DNA from: Candidatus Fermentibacteraceae bacterium
Lineage (GTDB): Bacteria > Fermentibacterota > Fermentibacteria > Fermentibacterales > JCC-6
Assembly (NCBI GenBank): GCA_041750285.1
Contig: JBGSZS010000020.1
Coordinates: 1-64,000 of the forward strand
Direction of reading: 5' to 3'
DNA: 64,000 nt
Numbering within the stretch: position 1 is the first letter of the stretch; every line of letters begins with the position of its first letter. Positions 1 through 60,253 of this stretch are shown piece by piece. The notes below the pieces were generated by a model. It saw only the letters and a program-made list of their open reading frames with translations. It was not told where the DNA came from and ran no database searches. The position numbers and the translations under genes were made by a program.

Positions 1-327
1 ATCCCCCTGGCCGGTGGAAGGCTCGCCATGCATTTCGGGCATTGCGAGAGCTTCGCCCTTGTGGATGTTGACAACGGATCGGGATGTATCGCCGGCAGAA
101 AAGACGTTCCCGCACCGGCACACCAGCCCGGCCTTCTCCCCCCCTGGCTTTCGGAGAAGGGCGCAACCGTAATCATCGCGGGAGGGATGGGACAGCGGGC
201 ACAGGAGCTCTTCACGCAGCATGGTATCAAAGTTGTGGTGGGCGCCCCGTCTGAAACCCCCGAAACCCTTGTAAAAGGCTTTCTGGAGGGAAGCCTGAAA
301 CTCGGGGGAAACGCGTGTGACCACTGA
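1..327 (+). CDS. NifB/NifX (dinitrogenase FeMo-cofactor) domain protein, 5'-truncated by the window edge; possibly the C-terminal domain of an Mrp/NBP35 ATPase
   Basis: Frame is open from base 1 (IPLAGGRLAMHFGHCESF); motifs HFGHC, PxHQPG, IAGGMGxRA and C-terminal NACDH are typical of this family. Confidence 0.8.
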   Translation: MPLAGGRLAMHFGHCESFALVDVDNGSGCIAGRKDVPAPAHQPGLLPPWLSEKGATVIIAGGMGQRAQELFTQHGIKVVVGAPSETPETLVKGFLEGSLKLGGNACDH

Positions 328-742
328 CGAACAGGTTTCGACGGGCCACACTCACTGTCTTTTCTGCGGAAGCCTGAACCCCAGGTCTTTGCACCTTGTT
401 TTCGAGGCAACGGAGGATGGCGGTGTGAAAGCCCTTTACACCGCTCCTCCGGAACTCCAGGGCTATGAGGGCATAATACACGGCGGGATCCTTGCGTCGC
501 TTCTGGACTCGGCGATGACACATTGTCTCTTTCACAGGGGCGTTAGGGCAATGACGGGCGACCTTCACATACGGTACCTGCAGTCGGTGCCGTTCGGCGT
601 CCCCCTCGAGATACACGCCAGTGTTCGCTCTTCGAGGCCGCCCGTGCATCTGCTGGAATCGGACATTACGACCGGCGGCACGGTTATGGTCAGGGCCGAA
701 GCCAAGTTCATGGAGTGCCCCAGGAAATCCACCTGCGTCTGA
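317..742 (+). CDS. PaaI-family hotdog thioesterase
   Basis: CLFCG..NP.SL.L, QGYEGIIHGGILASLLDSAM, T.DL.IRY motifs; GTG start overlaps upstream stop. Confidence 0.85.
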   Translation: MTTDEQVSTGHTHCLFCGSLNPRSLHLVFEATEDGGVKALYTAPPELQGYEGIIHGGILASLLDSAMTHCLFHRGVRAMTGDLHIRYLQSVPFGVPLEIHASVRSSRPPVHLLESDITTGGTVMVRAEAKFMECPRKSTCV

Positions 743-883
743 CGTTTTCACTGTCAGCAGGAAAGGAACGGTGCAGTATCCGGTCAGAATACCGATGTTC
801 GTCCAGGGTTTCATCTTGCGGTTCCCGGTAACTCCTGCTGCGGCCGTCCATCGCAACAGGTTCAACGGGTTGAATACCGGGAG

Positions 884-911
884 TTGACCGTTCCCGCCCA
901 AGTCATATATT
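884..911 (+). promoter_or_regulatory. Putative sigma-70 promoter of the arsR-acr3 operon
   Basis: TTGACC (884-889), 16 bp, TATATT (906-911); GGAGG SD at 937-941 before ATG 948. Confidence 0.6.
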
Positions 912-915
912 CCTT

Positions 916-936
916 TATGCACATATACACATATAC
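916..936 (+). promoter_or_regulatory. Candidate ArsR operator
   Basis: Imperfect palindrome TATG-N3-ATAT-N3-CATA (916-933) overlapping a perfect tandem ACATATAC x2 (921-936), between the -10 and the SD. Confidence 0.5.
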
Positions 937-45655: not shown

Positions 45656-48212
45656 TGGTCAGCATTCCCTCGCTGTAGACCTCGTAGGTGCCGTCGATCG
45701 ATGGATCGGACAGCACTCCGTAGATGTAATAGCTTCCCTCCGGCACTGCCCCGCAATTCCAGGTGTAACTGCTCAGATACTCTGGGCAGCCCACGTCCCC
45801 CGCGATGGGCACGAGCCCACCCGAAGGGTCGGTGTCGGTGTCGTAGTAGAGGTCAACGGTGCGGCCGGCGGGACCGACCGAATACCATTCGAGGGTGTAG
45901 CTGTCATCCGCGGTGGCCCCCGGCGGAGGCGGTGAGTAGAACGCCATCCAGAGAGGTTCCCTGTCGATAGTAAGTGTTCCCTCACTGTAAGCGGTAAGGG
46001 TCTGCTGGGCGTTCTCGAGTTTGGCGTAGATGTAGTACACGCCCTCGGGAGCGGTCGAGCAGTCCCAGTCGAACTCGAAGGCATCCCACGAGAGACCGCT
46101 CTGGATCATCGTCATCCCGTTGGCCGGATTCGTGTCTTCGTCGTAGAAGAGCGTCACGGTTCCGCCATAGGGAGTGTCGGCCGCCCACTGGATCAGATAC
46201 TCGGTCTGCGCGTAGGCACCCCATGGTGGTGGAGCAGTGACAATGATGTAGTTGTACTCGTGCTGGACCGTAAGCACTCCGTCGCTGTAATCCCCGGCAA
46301 AGCCGTCGGTTCCCGGGACCGGTCCACCCCTGGAGGGATCGTAGATGGCTCCGTAAACGTACCAGTCGCCTTCGGGCACCATGATGGTGTTCCACTGGTA
46401 GGTGCCGGTATTGGCAAGACCCGATGCGATGGGGAACATTTCCGAAGGGTCCGTATCGTCGTCGTAGTAGAGCGCGACAAGGCTTCCCGTTCCACCCGAG
46501 GCCGTCCAGCCAACGGTGTAGCTGCTGTCGGCGGAAGCTCCCCCGGCTGGCGGGGCGGTTACTGTCATGGAGTACAGAGAATGGTCGATCGTGAGCGTTC
46601 CCTGGCTCCATCCGCTTCCCGAACCTCGCCACAGGTCGGGGTGCCTTTCCCTTGTGTCGGTCACGAACCCGTAGATCCAGTAGACACCTTCGGACACACC
46701 GGTGCAGTCCCAATCGTACTGCCCGGCGTTGGGCGTTCCCATGACTATCGGGTTAAGGGTTCCTCCCGGCTCGTTTGACGTGCTGTAGAAGAGGTAGACC
46801 CAGGTGGAACCGTACGGGGCGTCGGTTTCCCACTCAAGGGTGTACTGGTCATCTGCGACTGCGCCTTCCTGGGGGGGAGCCGTTATCGTGAACGAGTAGA
46901 GTTCCTCGTGAGTGACGGTAACGGTCCCGCTGCTCCAGTCGCTGCCAAGTCCCCTGTCGGTGAGGGCCGCGAAGACGAACCAGGCGCCCTCGGGAACCAT
47001 TGATGTATCCCAGAGGTGCTCTCCCGAGTTCAGCACACCGGATGCAACCGGGTAAAGGGGAGCGCCGGTGGTGTCTGCAGCGTAGAAGAGGCTGAGCGTT
47101 GCCGAAGGTGGAGCGTCGGACTCCCATTCCACCAGGTAACTGCCATCGGCCTGCCCGCCCTCGGGAGGTGGTGCTGTCACTGTCACATGGAACTGGCTGT
47201 CATGAGTTATCGTCAGCATGCCATCGCTGTAGTCCGACGCCAGTACTCCCCGGGTGAGGTTGCGGATCAGTCGTGTCAGCCGTCCTCTCCCTTCGGGCTC
47301 GACGAGCTGGGCATGGACATAGTAAGAGCCCCCGGGCACCGAGGAACAGTCCCATGTATAGAAGCCGTCATTGTAAAGGCCGGAAGAGATCGGCTGCAGC
47401 CCGCCCGCGGGATCATCGTCCACATCGTACCAGAGCGATACAGTGGTGCCCTGGGGAGCCTCGCTGACCCATTCGATCGTGTAGAAGCCGTCTGCGCTGT
47501 CACCGGCTGCCGGAGGCTTCAGGACCGTGATCCAGGCAGGGGTCCCGTGGTCGATCTGCAGCATCCCGGGGCTGTAGGCGTAGGCGGAATTCTCACCGTC
47601 GGTAATCCCGGCGCGAACGTAGTAGTAGCCTTCGGGTACCGCGGTGCAGTCCCACTTGTACTCACCCGTATCGGGCAGGCCGCCGGCGATCTCGGTCAGT
47701 CCCTGGTCGGGCAGTGTGTCTGTGTCGAACCACAGGGTAACCGTTCCATCCGGGAATCCCGACGAGACCCACAGGATGCTGTATGTGTCATCGGCCTGGG
47801 CGCCCTCCGCCGGCGGGGCTGTGATGACCATGCCTTGTTCGCCCTGCGAATGGTCCACGGTAAGGGTGCCGTCGGAATAGTCGGATGCGGCGTTCATCCC
47901 GCTCGTGAGAACGGCCCTCACGTAGTAGGTCCCGTTTGGGACCTGCGAAAGGTCCCAGGAATGGCTCCCCGAGACCTGAAGGCCGGACGCGATCAACTGC
48001 TGGCCGGTCGGGCTCTGCACGGTATTGTAGTAGAGGGCCACGGTGCCGTCGCCCTGTCCCGTCCAGGCCACCGTGTAGGTGTCGGTGGCCTCTGCGCCTC
48101 CTGCGGGGGGGGCCGTGACCGTTACGGAGAGTGTCTCGGATGGTCCTGCAGGGTCGTCCCCACAGGAGAGAAGCGCTACGCAGAACGCGGTGGCAAGGAG
48201 CTTCCTGATCAC
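45645..48212 (-). CDS. Acidic surface lipoprotein with eight tandem ~100-aa Ig-like (Kre9/KNH1-like, Ser-Thr-rich GPI family-like) repeats
   Basis: Lipobox LLSC; repeat consensus VTAPP.GG..AD..Y...W.....V.LYYD.D..P.....I..G..N.G.Y.WD.S.VPEG.YYVY...YS.G.LTI.H seen 8 times. Confidence 0.85.
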   Translation of the reverse strand: MIRKLLATAFCVALLSCGDDPAGPSETLSVTVTAPPAGGAEATDTYTVAWTGQGDGTVALYYNTVQSPTGQQLIASGLQVSGSHSWDLSQVPNGTYYVRAVLTSGMNAASDYSDGTLTVDHSQGEQGMVITAPPAEGAQADDTYSILWVSSGFPDGTVTLWFDTDTLPDQGLTEIAGGLPDTGEYKWDCTAVPEGYYYVRAGITDGENSAYAYSPGMLQIDHGTPAWITVLKPPAAGDSADGFYTIEWVSEAPQGTTVSLWYDVDDDPAGGLQPISSGLYNDGFYTWDCSSVPGGSYYVHAQLVEPEGRGRLTRLIRNLTRGVLASDYSDGMLTITHDSQFHVTVTAPPPEGGQADGSYLVEWESDAPPSATLSLFYAADTTGAPLYPVASGVLNSGEHLWDTSMVPEGAWFVFAALTDRGLGSDWSSGTVTVTHEELYSFTITAPPQEGAVADDQYTLEWETDAPYGSTWVYLFYSTSNEPGGTLNPIVMGTPNAGQYDWDCTGVSEGVYWIYGFVTDTRERHPDLWRGSGSGWSQGTLTIDHSLYSMTVTAPPAGGASADSSYTVGWTASGGTGSLVALYYDDDTDPSEMFPIASGLANTGTYQWNTIMVPEGDWYVYGAIYDPSRGGPVPGTDGFAGDYSDGVLTVQHEYNYIIVTAPPPWGAYAQTEYLIQWAADTPYGGTVTLFYDEDTNPANGMTMIQSGLSWDAFEFDWDCSTAPEGVYYIYAKLENAQQTLTAYSEGTLTIDREPLWMAFYSPPPPGATADDSYTLEWYSVGPAGRTVDLYYDTDTDPSGGLVPIAGDVGCPEYLSSYTWNCGAVPEGSYYIYGVLSDPSIDGTYEVYSEGMLTISH

Positions 48213-51127
48213 CGGTACACCTCCCCGGCTGGTGCGTCGACAGGTAGAACGACAGGGGTTTCGTGCAGGGGAACTCCCGGTGAAACGGGGCCTTCAGCCG
48301 GTTTGTCGCCTTCCGCGGGCATGAGCCTGCCGGGATACCTGCCGTTGATGGCTCCGTGGGTAACGTTGGGAAGCCAGGTATCGCTGGAGAAGAAACGCAG
48401 ACGGTCGATGTTCCAGCCGCCCCTGACGATCGAACCGTCGCTCATCATCCTCCAGCGGTAGACCACGGTTCGATTGGTGCCGAAAACGGTCGAGGGGAGG
48501 TTGTCCACCCTGAAGCGGTAGTAACCCCATCCGGAGGCTGTGCCGTGAAGGGTTGCCAGCGGATGCCAGTCGTTGAACTGGTGCGGAGCTATCTCGCTGA
48601 ACCTGGCGACCTCGACGTACCCGAAGTCGTAGTTCTGTTCGAACCTCGGGCAGGCGTAGAACTCGACGTAAGCGTAGTTGTCGCCCATGTCATTGTTGTA
48701 GAAGATGGGAGGAGTGATGAGGGCATTGTGCTGGCTGTTCTCGTACTGAAGGTTCCAGTAGAACCCGTGCGAACTCCATGCAGTGGACATGTCGTTTCCG
48801 GCCCATTTTGAGCCGTCGGGTGTCGAGGTGGGATCGGCCGTGCCGGAAAGGACCCTGGCGTACGCAAACCAGTCGGCCATGGCCCATGTCGTCATGTTCC
48901 AGATGATCTGGGGCCAGTCCGCCCCGGGCCGGCTTCTCGTGTAGTCAACTTCCCAGCCGGGATTGGACGAATTGCCCACCGTGCCGTAGTTGAACCTGAG
49001 CCTCACCTGCTGCCCCGCGTATTCGGTTATGTCTATCACGGAGAAGTTCCAGTTCGTGCCGTTGCTTCCGGTCCATCCCGGCTCCATCGAAAGGGCCGGA
49101 ACCGCAGCAGTGTAGTAGCCCCAGTACGGAACGATAAGCTCCCAGCTCTCCCCGTTGTTGTTGGTGATCTTCACATTGCAGCCGTCTCCCGTGCTGCCGA
49201 AGCTGTACCTGTGAAAGAAGGCGACTGCGATCCTGTGACCCTCGGGATACCCCGAAAGGTCGATCAGCGGACTCTGCAGCCACGCCCGTGTGGGTGTCTG
49301 CTGGTAATTTTGTGCGCCGGCTACGGCGAAGCACCATGCGCCGTTGTAGGCCGCGTGGTTCGACGGCTCCCACTCATCGGTCACGTACCCGGGCCACGGT
49401 CCGTGTGTCCATCCCGACATTCCCCAGCCCCTGTTGTCTATGGAGATCTGGTCGAAGGCAATTCCGCTGTTGGGTATGGACTGGTCTCCGCGCTGGGCGA
49501 AACCAATGAGGAAGTTTCCCGAGAACGGGATTCCGGCGTTCTGCGCAGCCTGGCCAAGATCGACCGAGGCGGTTGTCCAGTTCGGGAAGTTGTCGGGCAC
49601 CGAGAGGATCTTGTGGCTCATGTCCCAGTAGCCGCTGGTGCCCTCGGAGACGAGAACGTTGTCGAAACTCACCCCGCCGTTGGCGTTGAAGGCCACAGTG
49701 GCGCCGGTGCCCTGCTGGGCAAGGATTATCCGGGTGTTGGCCAGGTCGTAACCCACGGGTATCAGCTCGTCAAGGTCGATGGTTATCCTCGCCCATGAAC
49801 CGGCAGGGTATGCCCCTGGATTGAGCTGGTGTGTCGCCACCGGGGTGCTCGTTATGCCTCCCGGCCCCATGATTCCCACAAAGGCGGTGTTGGGTGAACC
49901 CCTGCTGCACATGTCGAAGCTGATCTCGAGGTCGGTGCTCCCCGCGTAGGCGGACAGATCGAGCGTGGTCATCACCCTGCTCGTTCCCGTGTAGCCCTGC
50001 CGCCGTGTATCGAGGTTGAGGTAGTTCCCGCCGTCCGGAAGCTTGGGCCACGAAGCCGAGATCTGGACCCTTCCGTAGTCGTCGGTCCAGAAGGTCCAGC
50101 TTCGGGGAAAGCCGTTCCTGAACTCGCTGAAGTCCTCGTTGAGTATCTCGACCTGGGCATCGGGAATCCATTCAGTAAGGTAGACTCCGTCCTCTGTGTC
50201 CCATGAATCGTTGAACTCGCGCCAGTTAATGTGAAGCCGCAGCGAGTCGGTCCAGTCGAACCCCGACAGGTCGACGCTCCAGACGGCCATCTGGGTGCTG
50301 AGCCCGGGGGTCTCGCAGTCGAGGGCCAGACAGCTCTGCCCCTCGTACGCCTCGCTGTTGGTCCACCTGCGCACGCGGCCGTTGCTGTTCTCCGACCAGG
50401 TGACCCATTTGTTGCTCCATGATGCAGGACTCTCGAAATCCTCGGTGATCATGGGCACCCACATCCATCCAGCTTCCATCGCATCCTCGAAAATGAACGT
50501 GGTGGGAACCTCGAAGTCCTCGAAGAAGACCTCGCGCTCGAGTCGGGAGCCTCCGTCGTCATGATAGGACTCGTACACCGCCAGAAGCATTTCGGGATCG
50601 TGGCAGACAGCGAGGTTCAGCGGAGACACGCTTCCCGTTACCCGGGCGCCATTGCCGGAGGCCAGGTCAAAGTCGATTCGCCTGATCAGGGCCGGGTCGG
50701 TGACTTCCAAACCCGCGGCATCAAAGTATCCAAAGGTAACACTGCCCTCGATGGGCGGCGTGAAATCCTCGCCCGAGGCGTTCCGAACGGTAATGAAACC
50801 GCCGGAATTCCTTATCGAAAGCGTGTCTTCGGGGCCGAAGCCCTCTGTCAGGGTCAGGTTCGCAACGATAACAAGACCATCGTCGTCCGCCTGAAGGACC
50901 GGCTGCCATGCACCGGGAAAAACATCCCCCATGTAGCCGGTGTTGGCAAGAATGTCTTCAAGCCTTGCCGCGCCCAGCCTGGCGTCCGTTATGGCCGCCT
51001 CACGGGCCACGGCGTCGCCGGCACGCTGAGTTCCCCTTATAAAGAAGAACAGAGCAGCCAGAACCACACCCAGAACGGCAAGGGCGATCAGCCCCTCCAC
51101 AAGGGTGAAACCCCGTCTTCCACTCAT
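48209..51127 (-). CDS. Giant type IV pilin-like protein (~972 aa; PilW/GspJ-like head plus four jelly-roll domains)
   Basis: Class III signal RRG|FTLVE and hydrophobic helix; FGYFDAAG, IRRIDF, VSPLNL head; four EDF-type openers and four G..hD.h.h closers. Confidence 0.85.
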   Translation of the reverse strand: MSGRRGFTLVEGLIALAVLGVVLAALFFFIRGTQRAGDAVAREAAITDARLGAARLEDILANTGYMGDVFPGAWQPVLQADDDGLVIVANLTLTEGFGPEDTLSIRNSGGFITVRNASGEDFTPPIEGSVTFGYFDAAGLEVTDPALIRRIDFDLASGNGARVTGSVSPLNLAVCHDPEMLLAVYESYHDDGGSRLEREVFFEDFEVPTTFIFEDAMEAGWMWVPMITEDFESPASWSNKWVTWSENSNGRVRRWTNSEAYEGQSCLALDCETPGLSTQMAVWSVDLSGFDWTDSLRLHINWREFNDSWDTEDGVYLTEWIPDAQVEILNEDFSEFRNGFPRSWTFWTDDYGRVQISASWPKLPDGGNYLNLDTRRQGYTGTSRVMTTLDLSAYAGSTDLEISFDMCSRGSPNTAFVGIMGPGGITSTPVATHQLNPGAYPAGSWARITIDLDELIPVGYDLANTRIILAQQGTGATVAFNANGGVSFDNVLVSEGTSGYWDMSHKILSVPDNFPNWTTASVDLGQAAQNAGIPFSGNFLIGFAQRGDQSIPNSGIAFDQISIDNRGWGMSGWTHGPWPGYVTDEWEPSNHAAYNGAWCFAVAGAQNYQQTPTRAWLQSPLIDLSGYPEGHRIAVAFFHRYSFGSTGDGCNVKITNNNGESWELIVPYWGYYTAAVPALSMEPGWTGSNGTNWNFSVIDITEYAGQQVRLRFNYGTVGNSSNPGWEVDYTRSRPGADWPQIIWNMTTWAMADWFAYARVLSGTADPTSTPDGSKWAGNDMSTAWSSHGFYWNLQYENSQHNALITPPIFYNNDMGDNYAYVEFYACPRFEQNYDFGYVEVARFSEIAPHQFNDWHPLATLHGTASGWGYYRFRVDNLPSTVFGTNRTVVYRWRMMSDGSIVRGGWNIDRLRFFSSDTWLPNVTHGAINGRYPGRLMPAEGDKPAEGPVSPGVPLHETPVVLPVDAPAGEVYR

Positions 51128-51183
51128 TCTTTCGCCGCCTTTCCAATAAGAATCCCTGCAACCATCTATCATATCTTCCCGTA

Positions 51184-52548
51184 TCATTCGTCGAAAGCCT
51201 CACGAGGGGCATCCATCAGCCACGACACAGGCGTCCACCTCCACACCTGGGGAAACCCGGGGGGATGCAGTGAGACAAGGCCCGGATCGTGGGAGATTCC
51301 CAGCTCGTATCCTGTAAGTCCGCTTCCGAACCCTGCGAACGTCGCCGTGGCGAGCCCGCCCTGTATGGCTATCCGTGTTGGTTCGGGGGGATACATCCCG
51401 GTCCTTGCCCTGAAGCGGCCACGCGGGGCCGCCAGGAAAGCCCTTACCGTGAAGTGGGAGTCTGTCTCGATGTCCCACGGCCTGTCCCAGTCGTCCTGCC
51501 CCGTGAACTCGGGATCGGTTTCCACGATTATGTCGCCCAGTGCCACGAGTCCCAGAGGGCCTCCGTGACCCGCCAGCCCTCCGTCTATGGGTCCCCCGAG
51601 AACAAGGTTCCCCCTTGAGATGATCGTGAGCGGCGCCGTGAGGCTTGCCCGTGACTTCAGGATCGTGCCGTCATAACCACCTGACACACAAAGCACGCTC
51701 ACTCCCTGAAGGGAGAGGGTTTCGGGGGGACTTGCGGTGTCCCTTCTGTAGATCACCCTGCTTCCGTCCAGCAGCATCCGGGCCGCAGTGACCGAAACGG
51801 CTCCGCTGACAAGTCCGGCGAGCTCCTGTGATGCCCCGGGCATGTCCACCGGATCCTGGGTGCAGCTCCAGCTGGGTCTTCCCTGATTGTGCCTCGGCCA
51901 TGGCCTCACCCATACCCTGCTGTCGGGCGGGTGGGGTGAATCCGACATCCCCGCATCGGAGAACATGAATCCCCCCGTTACCGTGGTGGAGACGGACGAG
52001 ACCCAGGGGTCATCGGTGGAGTCCGGGGAGGAGCTGTCGAAGAAAATCCTTCCGTTGGCGTGCACGTGACCATCAACAACGCTTCCGTCGCTGAAGAAGC
52101 CCGGAGGGATCTCACCGCCGACAACGAGGGCAAAACCGGAAAGGTATCTGGGAACGGCCCTTACTATCAACCTGTAGTCCTGCGACCTGAATGTTCCGAT
52201 GCTCCTTATCTCGGCAACGCCGTTGCCGACCGAGGGATTCACGGGCACCGAGGGATGAACAGTTATAAGGGCGGTTGAACCCTCCGGCATTGAAAACCCG
52301 TCGGGAAATGGTTCGAAGGGTTCACGGGGGAGTTCATCCAGCGATTTCAGGTAGTGCATTGCCAGGTTCGCGCCGGACTCGGCTGCGTATGCCGCCATCA
52401 GTCTGTCCCTCTTGAAGATGGCGGTTCCAGCGTTAGACTTGAAGTACGTGTACGATGCCAGGACAAGGAACATCATCACAGAGGCAACACCGATTACCAT
52501 GGCCAGCACCGCGCCCCGCCGTGAGTGTCTACGGGTGTTCCTTGTCAT
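51184..52548 (-). CDS. PilX/GspK-like minor pilin with DUF4900-like beta-solenoid
   Basis: SRRG|AVLAM (no Glu5), AAYAAESG.N.A, EIRS.G, DGHVHANG, LGLVA.GDI, GY....HDP.L....PPGFP. Confidence 0.8.
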   Translation of the reverse strand: MTRNTRRHSRRGAVLAMVIGVASVMMFLVLASYTYFKSNAGTAIFKRDRLMAAYAAESGANLAMHYLKSLDELPREPFEPFPDGFSMPEGSTALITVHPSVPVNPSVGNGVAEIRSIGTFRSQDYRLIVRAVPRYLSGFALVVGGEIPPGFFSDGSVVDGHVHANGRIFFDSSSPDSTDDPWVSSVSTTVTGGFMFSDAGMSDSPHPPDSRVWVRPWPRHNQGRPSWSCTQDPVDMPGASQELAGLVSGAVSVTAARMLLDGSRVIYRRDTASPPETLSLQGVSVLCVSGGYDGTILKSRASLTAPLTIISRGNLVLGGPIDGGLAGHGGPLGLVALGDIIVETDPEFTGQDDWDRPWDIETDSHFTVRAFLAAPRGRFRARTGMYPPEPTRIAIQGGLATATFAGFGSGLTGYELGISHDPGLVSLHPPGFPQVWRWTPVSWLMDAPREAFDE

Positions 52549-52564
52549 GGCGTCATTCCAGCCG

Positions 52565-54046
52565 TCAGCGCCTGTTGTCGATCATGTCGGTGATCTCCAT
52601 GTTCGATTCTTCAGTCCAGTATAGAACGTGCCACCGGCCGTTGTTCGGGAAGAAGGGCGGGTGCATGGTCATCAGCCTGGGGTCGAAATAGACCTGCATG
52701 TCGTACCCTGCCGAGCCGGTACCGGTATAGCCTTCGGTTTGAACCATATAGCCGCCCATCACCAGAAAGGTCGCGAACGGCACCGGAAATCTCCAGTCCT
52801 GAGCCTGGAGCACGCCGTCAAGTGCCAGAAGCACTGCATCGTATTCAACGTTCATGTGGGTCTCGATCGAAAAGCCATCCTCCCACTGCCCGGGAAAGCC
52901 TGTGGCCCCGAGGCACCTTGCAATGAGCATGTTTCCGTTGACGGTAAGCAGCCCCAGCATGATGTCGTTGTCGGGGTCGAGGGGGTCGTCGTTCTGGTAG
53001 AGCATGTTGCCCGACATGACGATGTTGCCCTGCGTGCCGATGGTCAGGGGCATGGACAGCCCGTCAACCCTCATGTTGCCGTAGCTGCGGAGGTAGACAT
53101 CCTGGCCGATGGGCAGGTCGATCCAGACCACGGGATTGGCCAGAGAGTCCAGCCAGTACTTGGTGACCGGACTGAATTCGGTCAATTTCACCATGAGGGT
53201 GTCGTTCCTTATCATCGTGCGCATCCGGTTGGCGACCTGGGCGCCCGTCAGAACAAGGCCGCCGTTCTCGGCGGCATTCAGCACCGATGTCCAGTCCAGC
53301 TCGTCGCTTCCGAAGGGGATGGTGTCGGCGTTGAGCTCGAAGTAGGGCTCTCCCATAAGCATTCTGTCGTAGGGCTGGAGCCGGAGGTTCCCCCCCCCGC
53401 CTGAAACCTCCGGCTGGGTCGCCTGGATCTTGGTACTCTGTGCAAGATAGTATGGAGATGTCAGGGAGAGGCTGTAGAAGTAGGGGTCGTTGTTGAAACC
53501 CAGGCTTCTGCTGTAGATCCAGACCGGTCCGTTGGCGTAGAAGGGGCCGTCGAACTTGTAGCCGTCGCCGTAGTAGCCGCTGACATCGGGGTTGTCCATG
53601 AACACGCTGAACCTGGCAACGTTCTCGGGCATCACGCCGTTTGACATGCCGAATGTGAGGGGGCCTCCGGTGGCGTCTATCCTGCCTATGCAGCGGACCT
53701 CGTACGCATTGGCGGACAGCACCCTGTCGTTGGTGTCAAACGGGTCCACGACCACCATGACCTCGCCCAGCGGATCGGGAAGCTGGAACCATGTCAGGCC
53801 GTCACCCAGGAACCACTCGGGCACCTTTCCCTGAGGGATGTCCGACCCTCCCATTATCATGTGAACGGCGAGGTTGGCTCCGGACTCGGCCGTGAGCTTG
53901 ACCTGGATGCGGTCCCGCGTCCACAGCTGGGTATCGCCGCTCGATCTGAGGTAGGTGTAGGCCGCCCCGGTGAGAATGATAAGGAACAGGGCGGATATGA
54001 CAACCAGCATGAGGGCGGAACCCCTTTTTCTTCCGATTGCTTTCAT
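52565..54046 (-). CDS. PilX/GspK-like minor pilin with DUF4900-like beta-solenoid (paralogue of 51184-52548)
   Basis: RKRG|SALML, TAESGANLAVH, YEVRC.G, DGPFYANG, LGLL..NGN, GY....YFDPRL...HPPFFP. Confidence 0.8.
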   Translation of the reverse strand: MKAIGRKRGSALMLVVISALFLIILTGAAYTYLRSSGDTQLWTRDRIQVKLTAESGANLAVHMIMGGSDIPQGKVPEWFLGDGLTWFQLPDPLGEVMVVVDPFDTNDRVLSANAYEVRCIGRIDATGGPLTFGMSNGVMPENVARFSVFMDNPDVSGYYGDGYKFDGPFYANGPVWIYSRSLGFNNDPYFYSLSLTSPYYLAQSTKIQATQPEVSGGGGNLRLQPYDRMLMGEPYFELNADTIPFGSDELDWTSVLNAAENGGLVLTGAQVANRMRTMIRNDTLMVKLTEFSPVTKYWLDSLANPVVWIDLPIGQDVYLRSYGNMRVDGLSMPLTIGTQGNIVMSGNMLYQNDDPLDPDNDIMLGLLTVNGNMLIARCLGATGFPGQWEDGFSIETHMNVEYDAVLLALDGVLQAQDWRFPVPFATFLVMGGYMVQTEGYTGTGSAGYDMQVYFDPRLMTMHPPFFPNNGRWHVLYWTEESNMEITDMIDNRR

Positions 54047-54056
54047 CAGTCTCACC

Positions 54057-57000
54057 TCACTTTCCCGTGGTTCGGCCAAAGAACTGGATGTTGTCGAGGT
54101 TCCAACCCCCCTGTTTGAGCCAGAGGCCCGAGGAGAGAACGAACCTTATGAAATAGTAGTCGAAGGAGGAGTTGGCGTTGAACTCCGCGGTGAGATTGAT
54201 GGTCTCATACTGCCAGTTGTTGTCGTAAACACCGCTGTAGGTCCTGATGTTCTCCCACGAGAGCTCCTCGGGGTTGCGGTCGGGGTCGTCGTCAAAGGCT
54301 ATCTGAACGTAGCCGAAGTCGTTCGTGGCCAGCCTGAGGCAACGGTAGAACCTCACGTTGACGGTGTCGTACGCGGCTGCGTCAGCCATCTCGTAACCGC
54401 TTGACGCGAACCACCACCAGGCTTCGTCTTCGTAGTACCCGTTAATGGTGAGGTCGGTACCCGCAATGCTCGTTCCGTTCTCGGCAGTCAGGGCCGGATC
54501 GGGTGCCGGCCAGAATGCCGGAGCCCCAATCTCCCATTCGTTGCCTGCCGTGCCTGCTGTGGTGCCGCCGGAGGTCCAGGTGACGGGGTTGAAAAGACCA
54601 AGTTCGGGTGCCGTGTAGATGGCCTCGAAGTCGGTGAACCTGAAGTCGAAACTCACCGGCATGTTGCTGCTGTACTGGGTGCCGCTCTCCCCAACCGTGA
54701 CCGGGCTGCCGCCGATGGTGACCCTTGTGACCGGTCTGGTCGTCTGCACGGGCAGGAATGTGGGAGGGGTTCCTCCCCAGGCGGCCCTGCACACGTTCTC
54801 GATGCCTTCGTGCCTGAATGTGCCAAACCCCATGGTCTGGTTGTCGGAGACGATCTTCACACGAAGGTTGGCGTCGACGGGAAGGAAGTAGCTGTTGTCG
54901 AGCGGTATCGTCTGCCACTGCTGGGTGTTGCTGAAGACAAGCGGACCGCTGTAGGCAAGGAACAGCTCGCTCGGTTCCCATCTTCCACCCGAAAGCGTGG
55001 TCTGATCGGTCGAGCCCATGTACACATCGACATGGTCGAAGGTCATGTTCGCCACGACCGAGGTCTGGAAGTCGATGGAGGTTATCTCGTGGCCTTCGAT
55101 AAGGCAGTGGGCGTAGAAGTCGTCGAGGTACCAGCCTTCCCTTATGACCGACAGGTCTGAGTAGAAGACGAACCGGAACCTGACGCTGCTGCCTTTGTAG
55201 GGAGCGAGGTCGATCACCTCGGTGCTCCAGGACCTGGACCCGCTGAAGACGTCGCGGCCCCCGATAACGGCGTTGTAGTTAAGGCCGCTTGTGAGACCGA
55301 GGTCGGTCCATGAGCCGCCGTTCACCGATATCTGGACATAGCCGTAGTCGTAACCGGTTTCGAATTCGAAATCGGAACGGAATGAAAGCTCTGGGTCGAT
55401 GGCTTCGAGAGGTATCATGAAAGAGGGGGTCTCGAGGAAGCAGTGGGCAAAGTTGCTGTAGTAATCGGGGTCGTTGGCGTGAAGCGACCACATGTAGTCG
55501 GACGGATCGCTTGTGCTCTGATGAACGCTCCAGTCGTCAATACCCGTAAGGATGGGGTTGTGGGTCCAGCCCGGCATCGTGAGCCTGTCGACCGCCATGC
55601 CAACCTCGAAGTCGTCCCAGCAGATGCCGTGGATGTCCCACGGACCGGTGCCCGCCTGGCTGAGAAGAACCCCGAAGTCGCTCACGAAACCGGGGCCCGA
55701 AGGCGGCATCGCCGCGGCATTGAGGTCTACGTTGATTGTGCTCCAGTCGGCACCCGAAGAGGGAACACCTATCCGGGTGTAGGTGGTGTCGGCGGAGCCT
55801 GCTATGACTTCGACATCGTCTATGCTGATTCCCCTGTTTGTGCTGAAGTCGACTGCCATTCCGTTGTCGTACTGGGCGAAGATCAGGTAGAGCGGGTCGG
55901 GGGGAATACCGGGAATGGTGAAAACGGCTGATCTATCGGTCCACTCGGCGTTGCCGTAGCTCTGCGGGACAAAGTCGGCAACGTGATTGACCGTTCCCTC
56001 TATGACTCCGTGGCTGTTCCATCCGAGGAAGTCACCGGTGCCGCTTCCCGCGTTGTAGGCGTGGTTTTGGTCATTGTGATCGTGGAACCTGTAGTTGACG
56101 GTGAACTGGGTGTTGCTGGCCAGCCCCGTGGTTGGGACCTCGATCATCATCCTGACCTGTCCGTCGAAGCCCTCGCGCCTGCTGTCGAGGGTGACGAAAC
56201 CGCCGTTGCCGGGCCAGCCCGAGGGAGCGTGCACACGGCTGCGGCCGTAAAGGCTGCCCCAGAAAGTGATGTCACCCGAGGCCATGCCGACGTTGTTGAA
56301 GTTCTGCGTCAGGATGGTCTGGGGCACGCCGGTGAAATCGAGGAAGAAGACGCCGTCGGAAGCGTCGATCGTCTCGTTGGTGCCCCTGAGCGTGCTTACT
56401 TTGAGGTAGAGGTCGTCTGTCCAGATGCTGTAGGGGCTGAGGTCGAGTACGACCCCGGCCAGGTTCCGGGTCTGGGCGCCCGCGACCCTCCGCTGCATCC
56501 GGAGGGATTCATCCACCACGCCAATCATGCCGTCCGGACCCAGGGAGTAGGTGTTCCAGGTGAGAGCCTTCCCTCCCTTGGCCGAAAAGTCGTCGAAAAA
56601 CAGCGGGATGGAATCGGATACGACCTGTGGGGAGTTGAGATCGTCCTCCCACAGCACCACCGGGGTCACCGCGGAACCGGCGCCCTCGAATCCCTCGGCT
56701 GCGGTTATCGGATCACCGGGACTGCCGCCGCCCGAGCCGCCGAGCGTCCAGTGAAGGACGTTCCAAAGGAACTGGTAGCCATCGCCGGTGTAACCCGTAG
56801 CGGCAGGAAGACCGTAGAAGACCCTTCTCGTGGGAAGCTCTTCGTCCCTGACCGAGACAAGACCGGGCGTCGATCCGAAACCGTCGATCGTGGTGATGGT
56901 TTCGGTTATGGGTGTCAGGTCTTCCAGGTAGTTCATTACCGGAGTAATGGGAGGGACGATGAGCGTATCGTACATCGTGAACACCAGGTCTGCGGGGGAA

Positions 57001-58013
57001 AGAAGCGGAATCCTGTCGTGAATGTGGTGTGCGGGGATCTCCTTGAAATTGTCGTAGTAGAGATTGGTGGTTCCGGGGGTCAACGCCATTCCGTACACGA
57101 AACAGGCATCCTGGGGATCAATGCAGATAGTCGCGCACGGAAGGGCGTTCAGGGCGCCTATGATGGATGAGTGGTACGAGGCGCCGGGTATGTCACGCAG
57201 TAGCACAAGGTCGATCTGGTTGCCCACATAGTCGTAGGTTTCCAGCATGTCGTCCGTGAGTGAGATCACGGTCAGACCCCAGTAGGCCATTTTCTGTATG
57301 ATCCTGTACTGGTCGGGGGTTGGAGCAAAGGCCGTGGAGTCGCCATCGACGTTGACCACCGCGATACCCGAGAGAGGGGGTACCGGTATGAACATGGGGT
57401 CGATGTCGCGGTCGAGTCCGAGGTTCCTGGGACTGATCGTTGTGCGCATGGTGGTCGAGTAGATGTCTCCCATGTAGGTGTCCTGCAGTACAAGCGTTAC
57501 CCTTATGTGCCTCACGGCGTCGCGGTCCTGCAGGGAAAGGGGCTGGGAGAGTTCGCTTCCGTCCTCGTCCATGTAGTCGAACTGAACGCTCGTGATGTTG
57601 TAGCCGGCGCGGCGCTGCATCACAGCCTTGTCCGTTATCAGGACCGTGTTCTCCGAACCGAGAAAGATCCTGCGGTACTCGTCATCGTCGACCTGCCCCC
57701 AGGGCGCATGGTAATCAGCGTAGAAAGTGAAGCTGCCGGGGTCCGTTTCGTGCACGGGATGCCACAGGTCGCCGTCAATTCCGCCATGGGGCAGATAACC
57801 CGCCCAGATGATCTCGTCCGTGATCTGTTCAAGGGCCAGGCGCCCCGCTGTTGACAGTTCGTTCTGACGCCTGCTGAAGTGGAACTGCTCCATGCCTTTG
57901 GTGAAGAAGAAGAAGACTGCGGCGAATATCACGCCCAGCACTCCCACGACGATCATCAGTTCCACCAGGGACATACCCCTTCGGTGATGATCTCTGACAA
58001 AGTTGAACTTCAT
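54057..58013 (-). CDS. Giant type IV pilin-like protein (~1318 aa; PilW/GspJ-like head, alpha/beta domain, four jelly-roll domains and an extra module)
   Basis: RRG|MSLVELMI, EIIWAGY, FDYMDEDG, VRHIRVTL, ISPRNL head; FETGYDYGYVQISVNGG.W, IDLAPYKG..VRFRF.F.SD....EGWYLDD. Confidence 0.87.
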   Translation of the reverse strand: MKFNFVRDHHRRGMSLVELMIVVGVLGVIFAAVFFFFTKGMEQFHFSRRQNELSTAGRLALEQITDEIIWAGYLPHGGIDGDLWHPVHETDPGSFTFYADYHAPWGQVDDDEYRRIFLGSENTVLITDKAVMQRRAGYNITSVQFDYMDEDGSELSQPLSLQDRDAVRHIRVTLVLQDTYMGDIYSTTMRTTISPRNLGLDRDIDPMFIPVPPLSGIAVVNVDGDSTAFAPTPDQYRIIQKMAYWGLTVISLTDDMLETYDYVGNQIDLVLLRDIPGASYHSSIIGALNALPCATICIDPQDACFVYGMALTPGTTNLYYDNFKEIPAHHIHDRIPLLSPADLVFTMYDTLIVPPITPVMNYLEDLTPITETITTIDGFGSTPGLVSVRDEELPTRRVFYGLPAATGYTGDGYQFLWNVLHWTLGGSGGGSPGDPITAAEGFEGAGSAVTPVVLWEDDLNSPQVVSDSIPLFFDDFSAKGGKALTWNTYSLGPDGMIGVVDESLRMQRRVAGAQTRNLAGVVLDLSPYSIWTDDLYLKVSTLRGTNETIDASDGVFFLDFTGVPQTILTQNFNNVGMASGDITFWGSLYGRSRVHAPSGWPGNGGFVTLDSRREGFDGQVRMMIEVPTTGLASNTQFTVNYRFHDHNDQNHAYNAGSGTGDFLGWNSHGVIEGTVNHVADFVPQSYGNAEWTDRSAVFTIPGIPPDPLYLIFAQYDNGMAVDFSTNRGISIDDVEVIAGSADTTYTRIGVPSSGADWSTINVDLNAAAMPPSGPGFVSDFGVLLSQAGTGPWDIHGICWDDFEVGMAVDRLTMPGWTHNPILTGIDDWSVHQSTSDPSDYMWSLHANDPDYYSNFAHCFLETPSFMIPLEAIDPELSFRSDFEFETGYDYGYVQISVNGGSWTDLGLTSGLNYNAVIGGRDVFSGSRSWSTEVIDLAPYKGSSVRFRFVFYSDLSVIREGWYLDDFYAHCLIEGHEITSIDFQTSVVANMTFDHVDVYMGSTDQTTLSGGRWEPSELFLAYSGPLVFSNTQQWQTIPLDNSYFLPVDANLRVKIVSDNQTMGFGTFRHEGIENVCRAAWGGTPPTFLPVQTTRPVTRVTIGGSPVTVGESGTQYSSNMPVSFDFRFTDFEAIYTAPELGLFNPVTWTSGGTTAGTAGNEWEIGAPAFWPAPDPALTAENGTSIAGTDLTINGYYEDEAWWWFASSGYEMADAAAYDTVNVRFYRCLRLATNDFGYVQIAFDDDPDRNPEELSWENIRTYSGVYDNNWQYETINLTAEFNANSSFDYYFIRFVLSSGLWLKQGGWNLDNIQFFGRTTGK

Positions 58014-58026
58014 TGTGCCCACCCCC

Positions 58027-58395
58027 CTAGAACAGGATGCTGAGGCTTGTGGAATCGGCCCCTTCCGGGCCGCTCCACGTTACACGACACTTGATCAGCT
58101 TCGCTGCGGGGTATTCGAGATAGGGCGAGGAGACGAACACCTGCCTGCTGAAGCCGTCGGGAAGGCTTTCGACAGGACCTGCTCCGTCAGGCAGGGAGGC
58201 GACGTCGATCGTGCGCATCTCCTCGAGTTGTTCCCTGCAGTACTGAAGGCCCTTGGTCATCTGGTCCATCGTCTGGGAGTTGCGTATTATGTGCAGGAAG
58301 AATACCGCAATACCCGCGACTATTATCGCCATCAGTATCGATGCGATGACGACCTCGATGAGGGTAAAACCTCCGCTCCCCCTGATCCTGCTCAT
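58027..58395 (-). CDS. Small type IV minor pilin (PilV/GspI-like)
   Basis: GG|FTLIEVVIA, QLEEMR, FSRQVFV, K.I.C.VTW. Confidence 0.87.
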   Translation of the reverse strand: MSRIRGSGGFTLIEVVIASILMAIIVAGIAVFFLHIIRNSQTMDQMTKGLQYCREQLEEMRTIDVASLPDGAGPVESLPDGFSRQVFVSSPYLEYPAAKLIKCRVTWSGPEGADSTSLSILF

Positions 58396-58760
58396 CTTTC
58401 ATCCTCCTGAGAGTTGAAGCTGAATTGTCTTGCCAGTTCAACGGTAATGGAATCGCCTCTTGAAACCCTGACCGTAAGGAGACGGGTCCTGTCGCCAGAC
58501 CAGGCCAGGGTGGTTCTTACAAGGAATTGCCTCCCCATTATGGTGTCGGTTCTCTCCGATGAGAACGGCTCGGGGAGAGGGATCTCCGACTCGATGTCAC
58601 GCACCTCGAGCACAGCGAGTGTCAGGGCGTCCTGCCTCAGTTCAAGGTTGCGGGAACCTCTGAAGAAGTACTGCAGCGTCAGGGCCAGCACCCCCAGCAC
58701 CAGAACGATGACCACCGAGGCAACAAGCACTTCAACCAGTGTGAAACCACGTGCCTTCAC
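58392..58760 (-). CDS. Small type IV minor pilin (PilV/GspI-like)
   Basis: ARG|FTLVEVLVA, ALTLA, LLTVRVS. Confidence 0.87.
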   Translation of the reverse strand: MKARGFTLVEVLVASVVIVLVLGVLALTLQYFFRGSRNLELRQDALTLAVLEVRDIESEIPLPEPFSSERTDTIMGRQFLVRTTLAWSGDRTRLLTVRVSRGDSITVELARQFSFNSQEDER

Positions 58761-60202
58761 TGTTCCCCCGGCCCTTCACGCTCGGTGAACACCCTGCAGG
58801 CGGGGGGGGCGCCGTAAACGAGGATCCGGTATGACGAGCGGCTGGTCTCGTTGCGGGAAGTGCTGGAGGTTTCGATGATCTGAGCCGTCCCGTCTCCCGC
58901 GAGGGGATTGAAGACGGCGTCGAAACCGCCTTCGACGGGAGAGAAAACATCCACATCAAGGCCGTCTGCATCACCCCAGACGCAGCTTCCGGCTGCCAGG
59001 ACCGGGAGGATCCGGCCTCCGTTCAGCGAAGCCATCATGACTGAATCGGAGATGACGCCAGTCATCAAAGTTCCGCGGCCGAAGAACCTTCCCGCCCATG
59101 GTTCCAGCAGGGCGCCGGTGGGCTGAAAGATCCCGAAACCGTCGTGACTGAGCCGTGTCCAGACAGACTCGCCGCCGGAAAGGGTCCACTTCGCACCGAG
59201 ACCCAGGCTGCCCTCGATGGAACCCCAGGCAGCCAGGGCGGCATCGCGGGATGGACTGGCGGAATGAAGACCGGTGGAAGTAAGGGTGAAGAGGGTTCGT
59301 GGTCCCGCCCAGGCTATGTCCTCACGGCCGTCGCGGTTGAAATCGCCGAAAAACACCTCGCCGACCGGAGGTGCAAGTGTGAAGGAGCTTGGTGAACCCG
59401 GGCTGCCGAAAACTTCACCCGATGGTGTTACCACCGGACATGTCCCGACAGGTGAGATGAGCTTCCGGCAAGCGCCTGTTCCGATGTCGACAACCGTCCC
59501 CAGGTTGGAGCCGTTGCTCACGGCAAGGAGGGGGGTTCCGCCCGGATCGCCGAATGAAAGCACCGAGGAGGGATTGAAAGCCTCGATCGCAGCATCGGTG
59601 ACATGTACGAAACCGTCGCTGGTAACCACCGCAACCTTCCGGCCATCGACCGTATCCAGCACAAGAAGCGCCGCGTCTGTACCGTTCCAGGTGGCGGCGC
59701 AGCCCATGACGAGCGATGGTGAAAGGTCCGAGCGGAAAACACCTGTCCTTTCAGCGCCTGAACCCTCGTAGACGTAGACGGTGAGCCCGTTCTCGGGAGT
59801 CACTGCAAAAAGCAGCCTCCCGGCCGGGACAACGAGCGGGACCGCATCCCCTCCGGTGGCGTAACCCGCTGTACGGGGTCCAACCTGTTCATTGCCCGAT
59901 ACGGTGAAGACCGTGGTGACGCCGGCAAGTTCGTAGGAATGGGAGCTGCCCGTTTCGAGCAGCCCTTCGCGTTCGACCTTCAACACCAGGGCCTCGAGGG
60001 CGCTTGCCTCGGAAAGGGCAACCTGGGCGTCCCGCTCCCTTTGGAGCTGCCCGGATATCATCCGGTCCATCAGGGTGAAAAGGATTCCTGCGGCAAGCAT
60101 GACAATGAGTGCGGCAGCAATGGCTATGAAGATCGCTGCTCCACGGTTCCGGCAGGCCCGGTTCGCTCTGCCGACTGATCGCGGGGCACGAAAACGGATC
60201 AT
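58757..60202 (-). CDS. PilX-like pilin with inserted FG-GAP-type beta-repeat region
   Basis: RNRG|AAIFIAI hydrophobic helix, then amphipathic helix; FFGDFNRDGREDIAW and WGDADG motifs; ATG 60202 with AAAGG SD (TTG 60211 alternative). Confidence 0.7.
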   Translation of the reverse strand: MIRFRAPRSVGRANRACRNRGAAIFIAIAAALIVMLAAGILFTLMDRMISGQLQRERDAQVALSEASALEALVLKVEREGLLETGSSHSYELAGVTTVFTVSGNEQVGPRTAGYATGGDAVPLVVPAGRLLFAVTPENGLTVYVYEGSGAERTGVFRSDLSPSLVMGCAATWNGTDAALLVLDTVDGRKVAVVTSDGFVHVTDAAIEAFNPSSVLSFGDPGGTPLLAVSNGSNLGTVVDIGTGACRKLISPVGTCPVVTPSGEVFGSPGSPSSFTLAPPVGEVFFGDFNRDGREDIAWAGPRTLFTLTSTGLHSASPSRDAALAAWGSIEGSLGLGAKWTLSGGESVWTRLSHDGFGIFQPTGALLEPWAGRFFGRGTLMTGVISDSVMMASLNGGRILPVLAAGSCVWGDADGLDVDVFSPVEGGFDAVFNPLAGDGTAQIIETSSTSRNETSRSSYRILVYGAPPACRVFTEREGPGEQ

Positions 60203-60205
60203 GCT

Positions 60206-60253
60206 TGGCAACCTTTCTTTCTGTATGCGAGAAAGAAAGCAAATTCGTTGCCA
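60206..60253. repeat. Interrupted inverted repeat overlapping the sigma-54 promoter and SD
   Basis: TGGCAAC-CTTTCTTTCT-[GTATGCG]-AGAAAGAAAG-[CAAATTC]-GTTGCCA. Confidence 0.85.
60238..60253 (-). promoter_or_regulatory. Sigma-54 (-24/-12) promoter of the pilin operon
   Basis: Minus strand TGGCAACGAATTTGCT = TGGCA-N6-TTGCW with GG-N10-GC spacing; AT-rich tract immediately upstream. Confidence 0.78.

Follow-up and report, generated by a model that had tools for sequence, protein, structure and literature searches.

Probable recursive nesting of four jelly-roll domains in two giant putative type IV pilins of a Candidatus Fermentibacteraceae bacterium

Pilin A and pilin B are two giant proteins encoded in one minus-strand operon of a 64,000-nucleotide stretch of DNA from an uncultured Candidatus Fermentibacteraceae bacterium (positions 1 to 64,000 of contig JBGSZS010000020.1, assembly GCA_041750285.1; hereafter the window), and each carries four jelly-roll (beta-sandwich) domains, numbered here D1 to D4. 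An earlier note, made from the sequence alone, had seen that the motifs with which such domains open are stacked upstream of the motifs with which they close, and had proposed that D4 is inserted in D3, D3 in D2 and D2 in D1. We examined this proposal with sequence searches and predicted structures. The best explanation, to which we assign a probability of roughly 75%, is that both proteins are giant modular minor pilins with a four-jelly-roll module that was built by recursive insertion and may act as an adhesin at the pilus tip.

The pilin B gene (48209-51187, minus strand) encodes 992 amino acids by the longest open reading frame (ORF), and database relatives begin at M21, which corresponds to coordinate 51127; residues are numbered here by the ORF, and the numbering of the AlphaFold2 model of pilin B is the ORF numbering minus 20. 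The pilin A gene (54057-58022, minus strand) encodes 1321 amino acids, and its model numbering refers to the modelled stretch, residues 430-1321. By motif and hydrophobic helix both are type IV pilins, their processing and incorporation into a filament being putative. Prepilin N-termini with Gly-1 and Glu+5 are read in both sequences (RRG before FTLVE in pilin B, before MSLVE in pilin A), Pfam N_methyl (PF07963) scores 28.2 bits in pilin B and 24.0 bits in pilin A at a cut-off of 21.2, and TIGR02532 (NCBIfam) scores 21.4 and 19.5 at a cut-off of 16.3. The model of pilin B has a pilin fold (helix 9-60, strands 77-167) with a predicted local distance difference test score (pLDDT) mostly of 70-91 by block, and the pilin A head, which lies outside the modelled part, aligns with the pilin B head by BLASTP. 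The two proteins are paralogous beyond their heads (B 244-814 vs A 472-1034, 25% identity, E 5e-30), their C-terminal domains align too, and they are the only such paralogs in their own genome. Both are modular pilins in the sense of Raynaud et al. 2021 (PMC8179133), in which a pilin module is joined to extra domains that are not specific to pili. Their parts are as follows, with D1 and D2 divided as the preferred explanation would have it.

Pilin B
50558-51127 (-), residues 21-210: leader and head, a long N-terminal helix then a beta-sheet (N_methyl, AlphaFold2)
50429-50536 (-), residues 218-253: opener stack, putative first strands of D1, D2 and D3 back to back
50510-50527 (-), residues 221-226: opener 1, FFEDFE
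50474-50494 (-), residues 232-238: opener 2, IFEDAME
50429-50449 (-), residues 247-253: opener 3, ITEDFES
50153-50449 (-), residues 247-345: first half of D3, matched to uninterrupted repeats of P0096 (BLASTP) and P0068
49637-50152 (-), residues 346-517: D4, the innermost and contiguous jelly-roll
50126-50146 (-), residues 348-354: opener 4, ILNEDFS
49433-49636 (-), residues 518-585: second half of D3, ending with GIAFDQI
48920-49432 (-), residues 586-756: D2 core, MAM-like, without a local first strand
48353-48919 (-), residues 757-945: D1 core, the C-terminal jelly-roll ending with GGWNIDRL, homologous to the pilin A C-terminal domain
48212-48352 (-), residues 946-992: C-terminal tail, proline-rich and modelled as disordered
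Closers: GVSFDNV (residues 505-511), GIAFDQI (575-581), GWEVDY (744-749) and GGWNIDRL (923-930)

Pilin A
57423-58022 (-), residues 1-200: leader and head (N_methyl; BLASTP to the pilin B head)
56709-57422 (-), residues 201-438: extra alpha/beta domain of about 240 amino acids between head and opener stack
56583-56708 (-), residues 439-480: opener stack, AEGFEG, LWEDDLN and LFFDDFS
56328-56603 (-), residues 474-565: first half of D3
55788-56327 (-), residues 566-745: D4, innermost and contiguous, missing from P0042
55587-55787 (-), residues 746-812: second half of D3
55098-55586 (-), residues 813-975: D2 core, InhA-like MAM (PF20773)
54603-55097 (-), residues about 976-1140: extra beta-rich stretch between D2 and the rest of D1
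54060-54602 (-), residues 1141-1321: D1 core, with GGWNLDNI at the C-terminus
Openers: AEGFEG (residue 442), LWEDDLN (457), LFFDDFS (474) and ILTQNFN (570)
Closers: GISIDDV (residue 731), GICWDDF (799), GWYLDDF (963) and GGWNLDNI (1305)

An exact string search of the two minus-strand ORFs recovered 16/16 of the openers and closers where the earlier note had placed them, or within a few bases. Relatives of both proteins, 27 for pilin B and 18 for pilin A, conserve the motifs. The three-opener stack occurs in 27/27 aligned B-family proteins (39-86% identity), with F201, E206, D215, E218, P225, E229, F231 and E232 invariant (model numbering), and the invariant positions of the A family are E443, F445, E446, W458, D460 and F575 together with the closer residues. 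When both families are aligned jointly, all 49 sequences have the glutamate in opener 1 and the aspartate in opener 2.

The premise that MAM-like domains normally open with an E-D-F-E-type strand and close with a G-x-x-h-D-type motif held good in a survey of canonical domains. An exhaustive HMMER search gave 361 proteins at E up to 0.001, of which 150 were listed; the D2 region of the pilins was re-aligned to 147 proteins (P0051-P0197), which comprise most of those listed and two from another search, and the residues upstream of the 'GW' strand were inspected. A local opener of the form '[FLM][ED]x(2-6)G' stood no more than 30 residues upstream of this strand in 94 of the 102 non-pilin MAM-like matches, the eight misses being mostly near-variants of the pattern; the background rate was 27% of random 40-residue windows in the same proteins (1383/5100). 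The closer G-x-x-h-D-x-h was present at the end of 86 of 97 such matches. Among the pilin-family matches the local opener was found in 0/6, D2 beginning right after the closer of the preceding domain. Since the opener is local in 94/102 canonical matches and in 0/6 pilin matches, D2 and D1 of the pilins are without the first strand typical of the family, and the number of orphan first strands upstream is exactly the number of domains without one (D1 and D2). A stricter expression, [ED][DENGS]F[EDNS], caught only 28/108 matches, and the looser pattern with its random-window control was used instead. The protein P0101, which covers query 437-772 in one stretch, was considered as a nest outside the pilins and ruled out, a local opener preceding its MAM domain.

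Domain scanners see little of this. The expectation that linear hidden Markov model scans would detect only fragments was borne out, for Pfam finds part of one of the four jelly-rolls per protein; beyond N_methyl it sees only an InhA-like MAM fragment in each pilin. In D2 of pilin A, PF20773 (InhA-like MAM) scores 35.2 bits (E 1.2e-8, cut-off 26.9), and the match is partial (residues 875-971, profile positions 63-162 of 191). NCBIfam contributes only partial matches, to the section of M36 peptidases that bears the MAM domain, and the gingipain cleaved-adhesin family is absent from the Pfam listing at E up to 1 for both pilins. Searching the sequences of solved structures returned only chance-level or N-terminal-helix matches for pilin B, 0 matches for the C-terminal 547 amino acids of pilin A, and four matches at E 0.29 or worse for pilin A 195-439. 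Residues 201-438 of pilin A matched no Pfam or NCBIfam family save one chance-level NCBIfam line (E 0.28). For pilin A 976-1140, which is modelled with long strands (block pLDDT mostly 83-94) and has no counterpart in pilin B, no dedicated match was found. The 47-residue tail of pilin B is poorly conserved (mean column identity 0.32), with pLDDT 29-42.

The innermost level of the nest, D4 in D3, is established from sequence comparison, independently of any structural model. The D3-type domain exists as an uninterrupted repeat of about 150 amino acids in the non-pilin proteins P0069, P0096 and P0106. Residues 144-229 of P0096 align on pilin B 250-339 (BLASTP, E 4e-9), and the second half of the same repeat aligns on pilin B 515-585 (BLASTP, E 0.004, and also inside a longer alignment). 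Between the two D3 halves lies a 175-residue stretch, within which pilin B 372-514 matches the whole P0096 repeat (E 2e-8); because D4 as a whole matches the same repeat as its host, it is a paralog of D3. In P0068 the halves of D3 are 9-20 amino acids apart in 4/4 repeats, vs about 199 in pilin B. A natural counterpart of the uninterrupted state is also found among the pilins themselves: P0042, a 1119-amino-acid ortholog of pilin A with about 51% identity, matches A 17-561 and 744-1317 and is without exactly D4 (A residues 562-743), its D3 being continuous across the junction, which reads DGVFFVSVNSPGDTTYNRF. This protein carries three openers and three closers. Structural alignments spanning D3 from opener 3 to closer 2 numbered 0, so the split of D3 rests on these sequence data.

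The outer levels were judged on AlphaFold2 models of pilin B (49-row alignment, mean pLDDT 80.8, predicted template modelling score (pTM) 0.54) and of pilin A residues 430-1321 (46-row alignment, mean pLDDT 85.9, pTM 0.41), by the spans that solved single domains cover on them, a span being only the first and last aligned residues. Openers 1-3 of pilin B are modelled as strands (198-203, 213-215 and 219-229, model numbering, as in the spans below). D4 is contiguous, at 321-328 to 495-498 in 23/50 rows for pilin B and in rows at 137-141 to 310-318 for pilin A. For D2 of pilin B, 12/50 and 19/50 rows of the two match tables run from about 209 to 735-745, with 133-165 residues aligned at a root mean square deviation (rmsd) of 2.3-3.3: the MAM domain of meprin beta (4gwm_A) aligns 153 residues at 210..745 (rmsd 2.5, Z 15.5), 8xmz_B aligns 135 of its 137 residues at 209..736, and 8jiy_A aligns 165 at 207..735 (Z 14.1). 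A domain of about 150 residues that covers 530 model residues is therefore discontinuous in the model, reaching from opener 2 (212-218 in pilin B) to closer 3. In pilin A, 3/50 and 5/50 rows place D2 from 19-27 to 545-546 (8jiy at 22..546 and 7uaf_C at 26..546, for example). The pairing of opener 2 with the penultimate jelly-roll that had been predicted thus appears in both models, as single-domain alignments from opener 2 to closer 3, and the inclusion of D3 and D4 in D2 is largely supported in both predicted structures.

The outermost level is seen in one of the two models. In pilin A, 3/50 and 5/50 rows of the two tables run from 6-10 to 887-890, among them 4gwm_A, with 153 residues aligned at 8..889 (rmsd 2.7, Z 14.6), and 8yt7, 4l0p, 4gwn, 7auw and 7t7z span D1 as it does; the inclusion of D2 in D1 is accordingly largely supported, in the pilin A model only. 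The two segments of D2 in both models, and of D1 in the pilin A model, form one structural domain in these predictions, as judged by the spans. Six more rows of one 50-row table for pilin B begin at 207-211 and end at 803-847, which suggests that, in the model, D2 has strands from the C-terminal domain packed against it. A complex prediction between model residues 180-210 of pilin B, which hold opener 1, and 737-932 gave a median of 0.31 against a mark of 0.32, with no control runs, and speaks neither for nor against the pairing. With the whole pilin B model as query, Foldseek gave matches that extend over several domains (reelin repeats, E 1.4e-14); their rmsd exceeds 20, and they are uninformative on topology. 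The proposal as a whole has thus stood at the level of D4 in D3 from sequence, of D3 and D4 in D2 in both models and of D2 in D1 in the pilin A model, where opener 1 joins the C-terminal domain; the alignments do not show this pairing for pilin B, no row in either table beginning before model residue 205.

The depth of the nest varies within the family. Of 61 genomes sampled from the phylum, 55 contain something that matches pilin B (E up to 0.001), many of these matches covering the pilin head only, and near full-length B-type genes are present in roughly a quarter of the genomes; in one genus (g11) the best matches to the B head lie in open frames of about 225 amino acids. In several genera, open frames of the A type (about 1300 amino acids) share a contig with them at a distance of a few kb, and the A/B pair and its order recur in relatives. 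An ortholog of pilin A from another genus, g2 (L005 516-3071, minus strand), has 851 amino acids and consists of the head, the extra domain (pilin A 201-438 is kept at 39% identity), a D2-like and a D1-like domain; because it has these two jelly-rolls only, nest depth differs among family members.

Under the explanation we prefer, the sequence order would be D1a-D2a-D3a-D4-D3b-D2b-D1b, with the extra stretch of pilin A between D2b and D1b, and the pilin head (followed in A by the extra domain) would precede the module of four beta-sandwiches. The chain would contribute only one strand, the first, to D1 and then to D2, go on to half of D3 and the complete D4, and then return through the rest of D3, D2 and D1, so running out and back with adjacent domains linked by two chain crossings and with the C-terminus, by topology, in D1, the domain adjoining the pilin head. 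D2 and D3 would each be inserted just after the first strand of the host, and D4 in a mid-domain loop. D1 and D2 are best explained as MAM/InhA-like, and D3 and D4 as a second, CBM-like type (CBM, carbohydrate-binding module). The module would be located, together with the operon's other minor pilins, at the tip of the pilus, where its distal jelly-rolls would perhaps bind a glycan or a protein, and the double connection might keep the adhesin intact under retraction load. We infer the adhesive function because the nearest folds are MAM domains, CBMs and gingipain adhesin domains, and because lectin-type modules of minor pilins serve as adhesins in S. sanguinis; the position would agree with the placing of large minor pilins at the tip in general. 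With pTM as low as 0.41-0.54, the four domains may or may not form an extended stalk.

Several observations weigh against a full nest, and some of them would suit tandem jelly-rolls arranged as beads on a string, with D1 and D2 simply having no first strand, the EDFE strands forming a local sheet or linker, and AlphaFold2 docking these strands from learned MAM/CBM patterns. The evidence for nesting in the models consists of alignment end points on predictions of modest pTM (0.54 and 0.41). At opener 1 the pLDDT is moderate (blocks of 65-73 in pilin A, one block of 56 and then 83 in pilin B), opener 1 of pilin B is never within an alignment, so that its pairing with D1 is unseen, and the outermost level in this protein is argued from homology to pilin A and by elimination. 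The InhA2 MAM domain (4yu5_A) aligns without any opener, at 760..919 of pilin B (Z 11.5) and 404..546 of pilin A; the score of PF20773 in pilin B (residues 711-748, E 0.0038) is under the cut-off, at 17.2 vs 26.9 bits, though the likeness of fold is strong in this protein (4gwm_A, Z 15.5). The 851-amino-acid ortholog of genus g2 seems to have fewer openers than closers, with one clear opener (LLIEEGFDD) for two closers, and the rule of one opener per closer may not be universal. Set against beads on a string, the opener residues do not vary among the 49 sequences of the two paralogous families, a local opener accompanies 94/102 canonical domains vs 0/6 pilin domains, many independent solved domains align from opener to closer at rmsd 2.3-3.3, and D4 in D3 is shown independently of any model; we regard such a tandem arrangement, with the docking artefact that it implies, as quite unlikely.

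Other alternatives accept the orphan strands or the nest itself and differ in what is made of them. The strands could act in trans, completing the jelly-rolls of the other pilin or of a second copy and so tying tip subunits together: different genera retain the two giant pilins, orphan strands and incomplete domains included, in one operon, and the joining of tip subunits by beta-strand addition is well known in type IV filaments (PMC13533445). This is nevertheless highly improbable, given that openers equal closers in number in each protein, that the pairing is already accounted for within a single chain in the monomer models and that P0042 has lost one opener and one closer together. With a somewhat better, though still low, chance of being right than either of these, the nest may be real and the module something other than a force-bearing glycan adhesin, such as a spacer or shield, a device for cell-cell contact or a part of a DNA-uptake pilus. 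The operon is immediately preceded, on its own strand, by the gene dprA, and a shared fold alone shows no function; yet the closest folds are those of CBMs, MAM and gingipain adhesin domains, and minor pilins are known to adhere by modules of lectin type (PMC8179133).

A more specific version of the preferred explanation, which we think similarly unlikely, makes the nest a load-bearing design particular to the tips of retractile pili. Opener strands with their conserved acidic residues and D-x closer strands would clasp each level, perhaps through a shared structural metal site of the kind that many CBM jelly-rolls carry, and force would pass over two strands per junction and never across the termini of a single domain. 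With the chain back at the head, the C-terminus, in pilin B a tail of conserved position, would be able to provide a strand for one of the operon's three PilX/GspK-like proteins, and this strand addition would license assembly of the tip.

The recursive nest as we envisage it resembles several known systems in part. Modular pilins are widespread and diverse, a survey of more than 1,200 proteins having distinguished 264 architectures, and Streptococcus sanguinis has PilB with a vWA module and PilC with a lectin module, lectin-type modules of minor pilins being adhesive (PMC8179133, in the portion available). Pilins A and B share with these an N-terminal pilin joined to functional modules, an expected position at the tip and lectin-type folds for adhesion; in contrast, the modules described in that portion are grafted C-terminally through a short loop and are linear, whereas here four domains are nested in proteins of 992 and 1321 amino acids. 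The retrieved text of PMC8179133 makes no mention of a nested jelly-roll architecture. As in tip subunits of the CpaL/TadG and GspK types, going by excerpts of PMC13533445, the proteins are large and the chain runs out into a bulky middle part and back; unlike in those subunits, the return ends here in D1 beside the head, and in no model in the pilin sheet. The same excerpts describe beta-strand addition for PilY1, GspK and CpaL, and by analogy the returning C-terminus of the nest may have a role in an addition of this kind. Recursive insertion itself is known from the Si3 region of the cyanobacterial RNA polymerase beta' subunit, where it reaches up to six levels, single-level insertions being dominant (PMC13114784, seen in part); domains of the same fold are likewise inserted repeatedly there in an A1-B1-C-B2-A2-type order, but Si3 has another fold and belongs to a cytoplasmic enzyme, with no link to filaments or load.

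By fold, the domains are like the MAM domains of meprin alpha and beta, InhA-like MAM domains, gingipain K1-K3 and CBM jelly-rolls, with which they have the opener and closer motifs in common: the InhA2 MAM domain (4yu5_A) scores Z 11.3-11.5 across models and gingipain adhesin domains score Z 12.9-13.8 (4itc) and 12.5-13.3 (3km5, 3m1h), sequence identity in the structural alignments being 8-19%. They differ from all of these in that D1-D3 are split in the pilins, non-pilin matches having a local opener in 94/102 cases. An out-and-back chain in a filament-borne protein is also a feature of RrgA, the pneumococcal pilus adhesin, and of flagellin D0-D3; the folds and assembly systems of these two are unrelated to those of pilins A and B, and the likeness is one of analogy only. 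Neither is among the matches to the pilin models in the fold-search tables, which by itself excludes nothing. Our searches of the open-access literature turned up no type IV pilin described as carrying nested jelly-rolls, and on Fermentibacteria pilins only a mention of type IV pilus genes. Both modular pilins and recursive nested insertions have precedents, and what would be new is their combination on a type IV pilin.

The minor pilins at the tip decide what a bacterium sticks to and must hold under the force of retraction, and a jelly-roll nest of three levels is a natural test case for the way in which chain topology affects adhesin strength. Pilin A, P0042 and the genus-g2 ortholog, with four, three and two domains respectively, form a natural series and provide ready-made constructs for comparison. 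Such a nest would return the C-terminus towards the tip complex, which is of note in view of a recent report that pilus assembly is licensed by C-terminal strand addition. It also shows why domain scanners under-annotate proteins of this kind.

The operon is a run of closely spaced minus-strand genes, which in order encode a 484-amino-acid protein, two pilins of 122 amino acids, pilin A, proteins of 504 and 454 amino acids, pilin B and an 855-amino-acid protein. Besides pilins A and B, its genes, and one further gene of the window, are:

58757-60211 (-): first operon gene, 484 amino acids, N-terminal hydrophobic helix and weak FG-GAP matches
58027-58760 (-): two small pilins of 122 amino acids each (Pfam N_methyl)
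52565-54079 (-): 504-amino-acid protein, N-terminal hydrophobic helix, no Glu5, no family match
51184-52548 (-): 454-amino-acid protein, N-terminal hydrophobic helix, no Glu5, no family match
45645-48212 (-): 855-amino-acid lipoprotein-like protein with Kre9/KNH Ig-like repeats (E 8e-29), about eight similar units of 100 amino acids
28752-29900 (-): PilT-size T2SSE ATPase, 382 amino acids, 173.5 bits

The start codon of the 855-amino-acid gene overlaps the stop codon of pilin B, and the two are for this reason probably co-transcribed. In the proteins of 454, 504 and 484 amino acids the hydrophobic helix is preceded by Arg/Gly and Glu5 is absent, and no Pfam family is matched at E up to 0.01 (weakly FG-GAP in the 484-amino-acid protein); from these sequence traits they possibly resemble PilX/GspK-type tip subunits or a substitute for PilY1. 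The genome (2.55 Mb in 23 contigs) encodes five T2SSE-family ATPases, of PilB- and PilT-size classes with two PilT-sized, and one secretin; the four T2SSE genes other than that listed above are on contigs C4 and C2, and the secretin is on C4.

Directly upstream of the operon and on the same strand, after obg, lies dprA (60348-61205, minus strand; DNA_processg_A, E 5e-76), an adjacency that may hint at a link with DNA uptake or be coincidence. Three HD_5 (HD-GYP-type) proteins are encoded on the plus strand of the window (42483-45655 and 5902-7695), two of them adjacent to each other and convergent with the end of the pilin operon; they could be genes of cyclic-di-GMP signalling in the vicinity of pilus genes.

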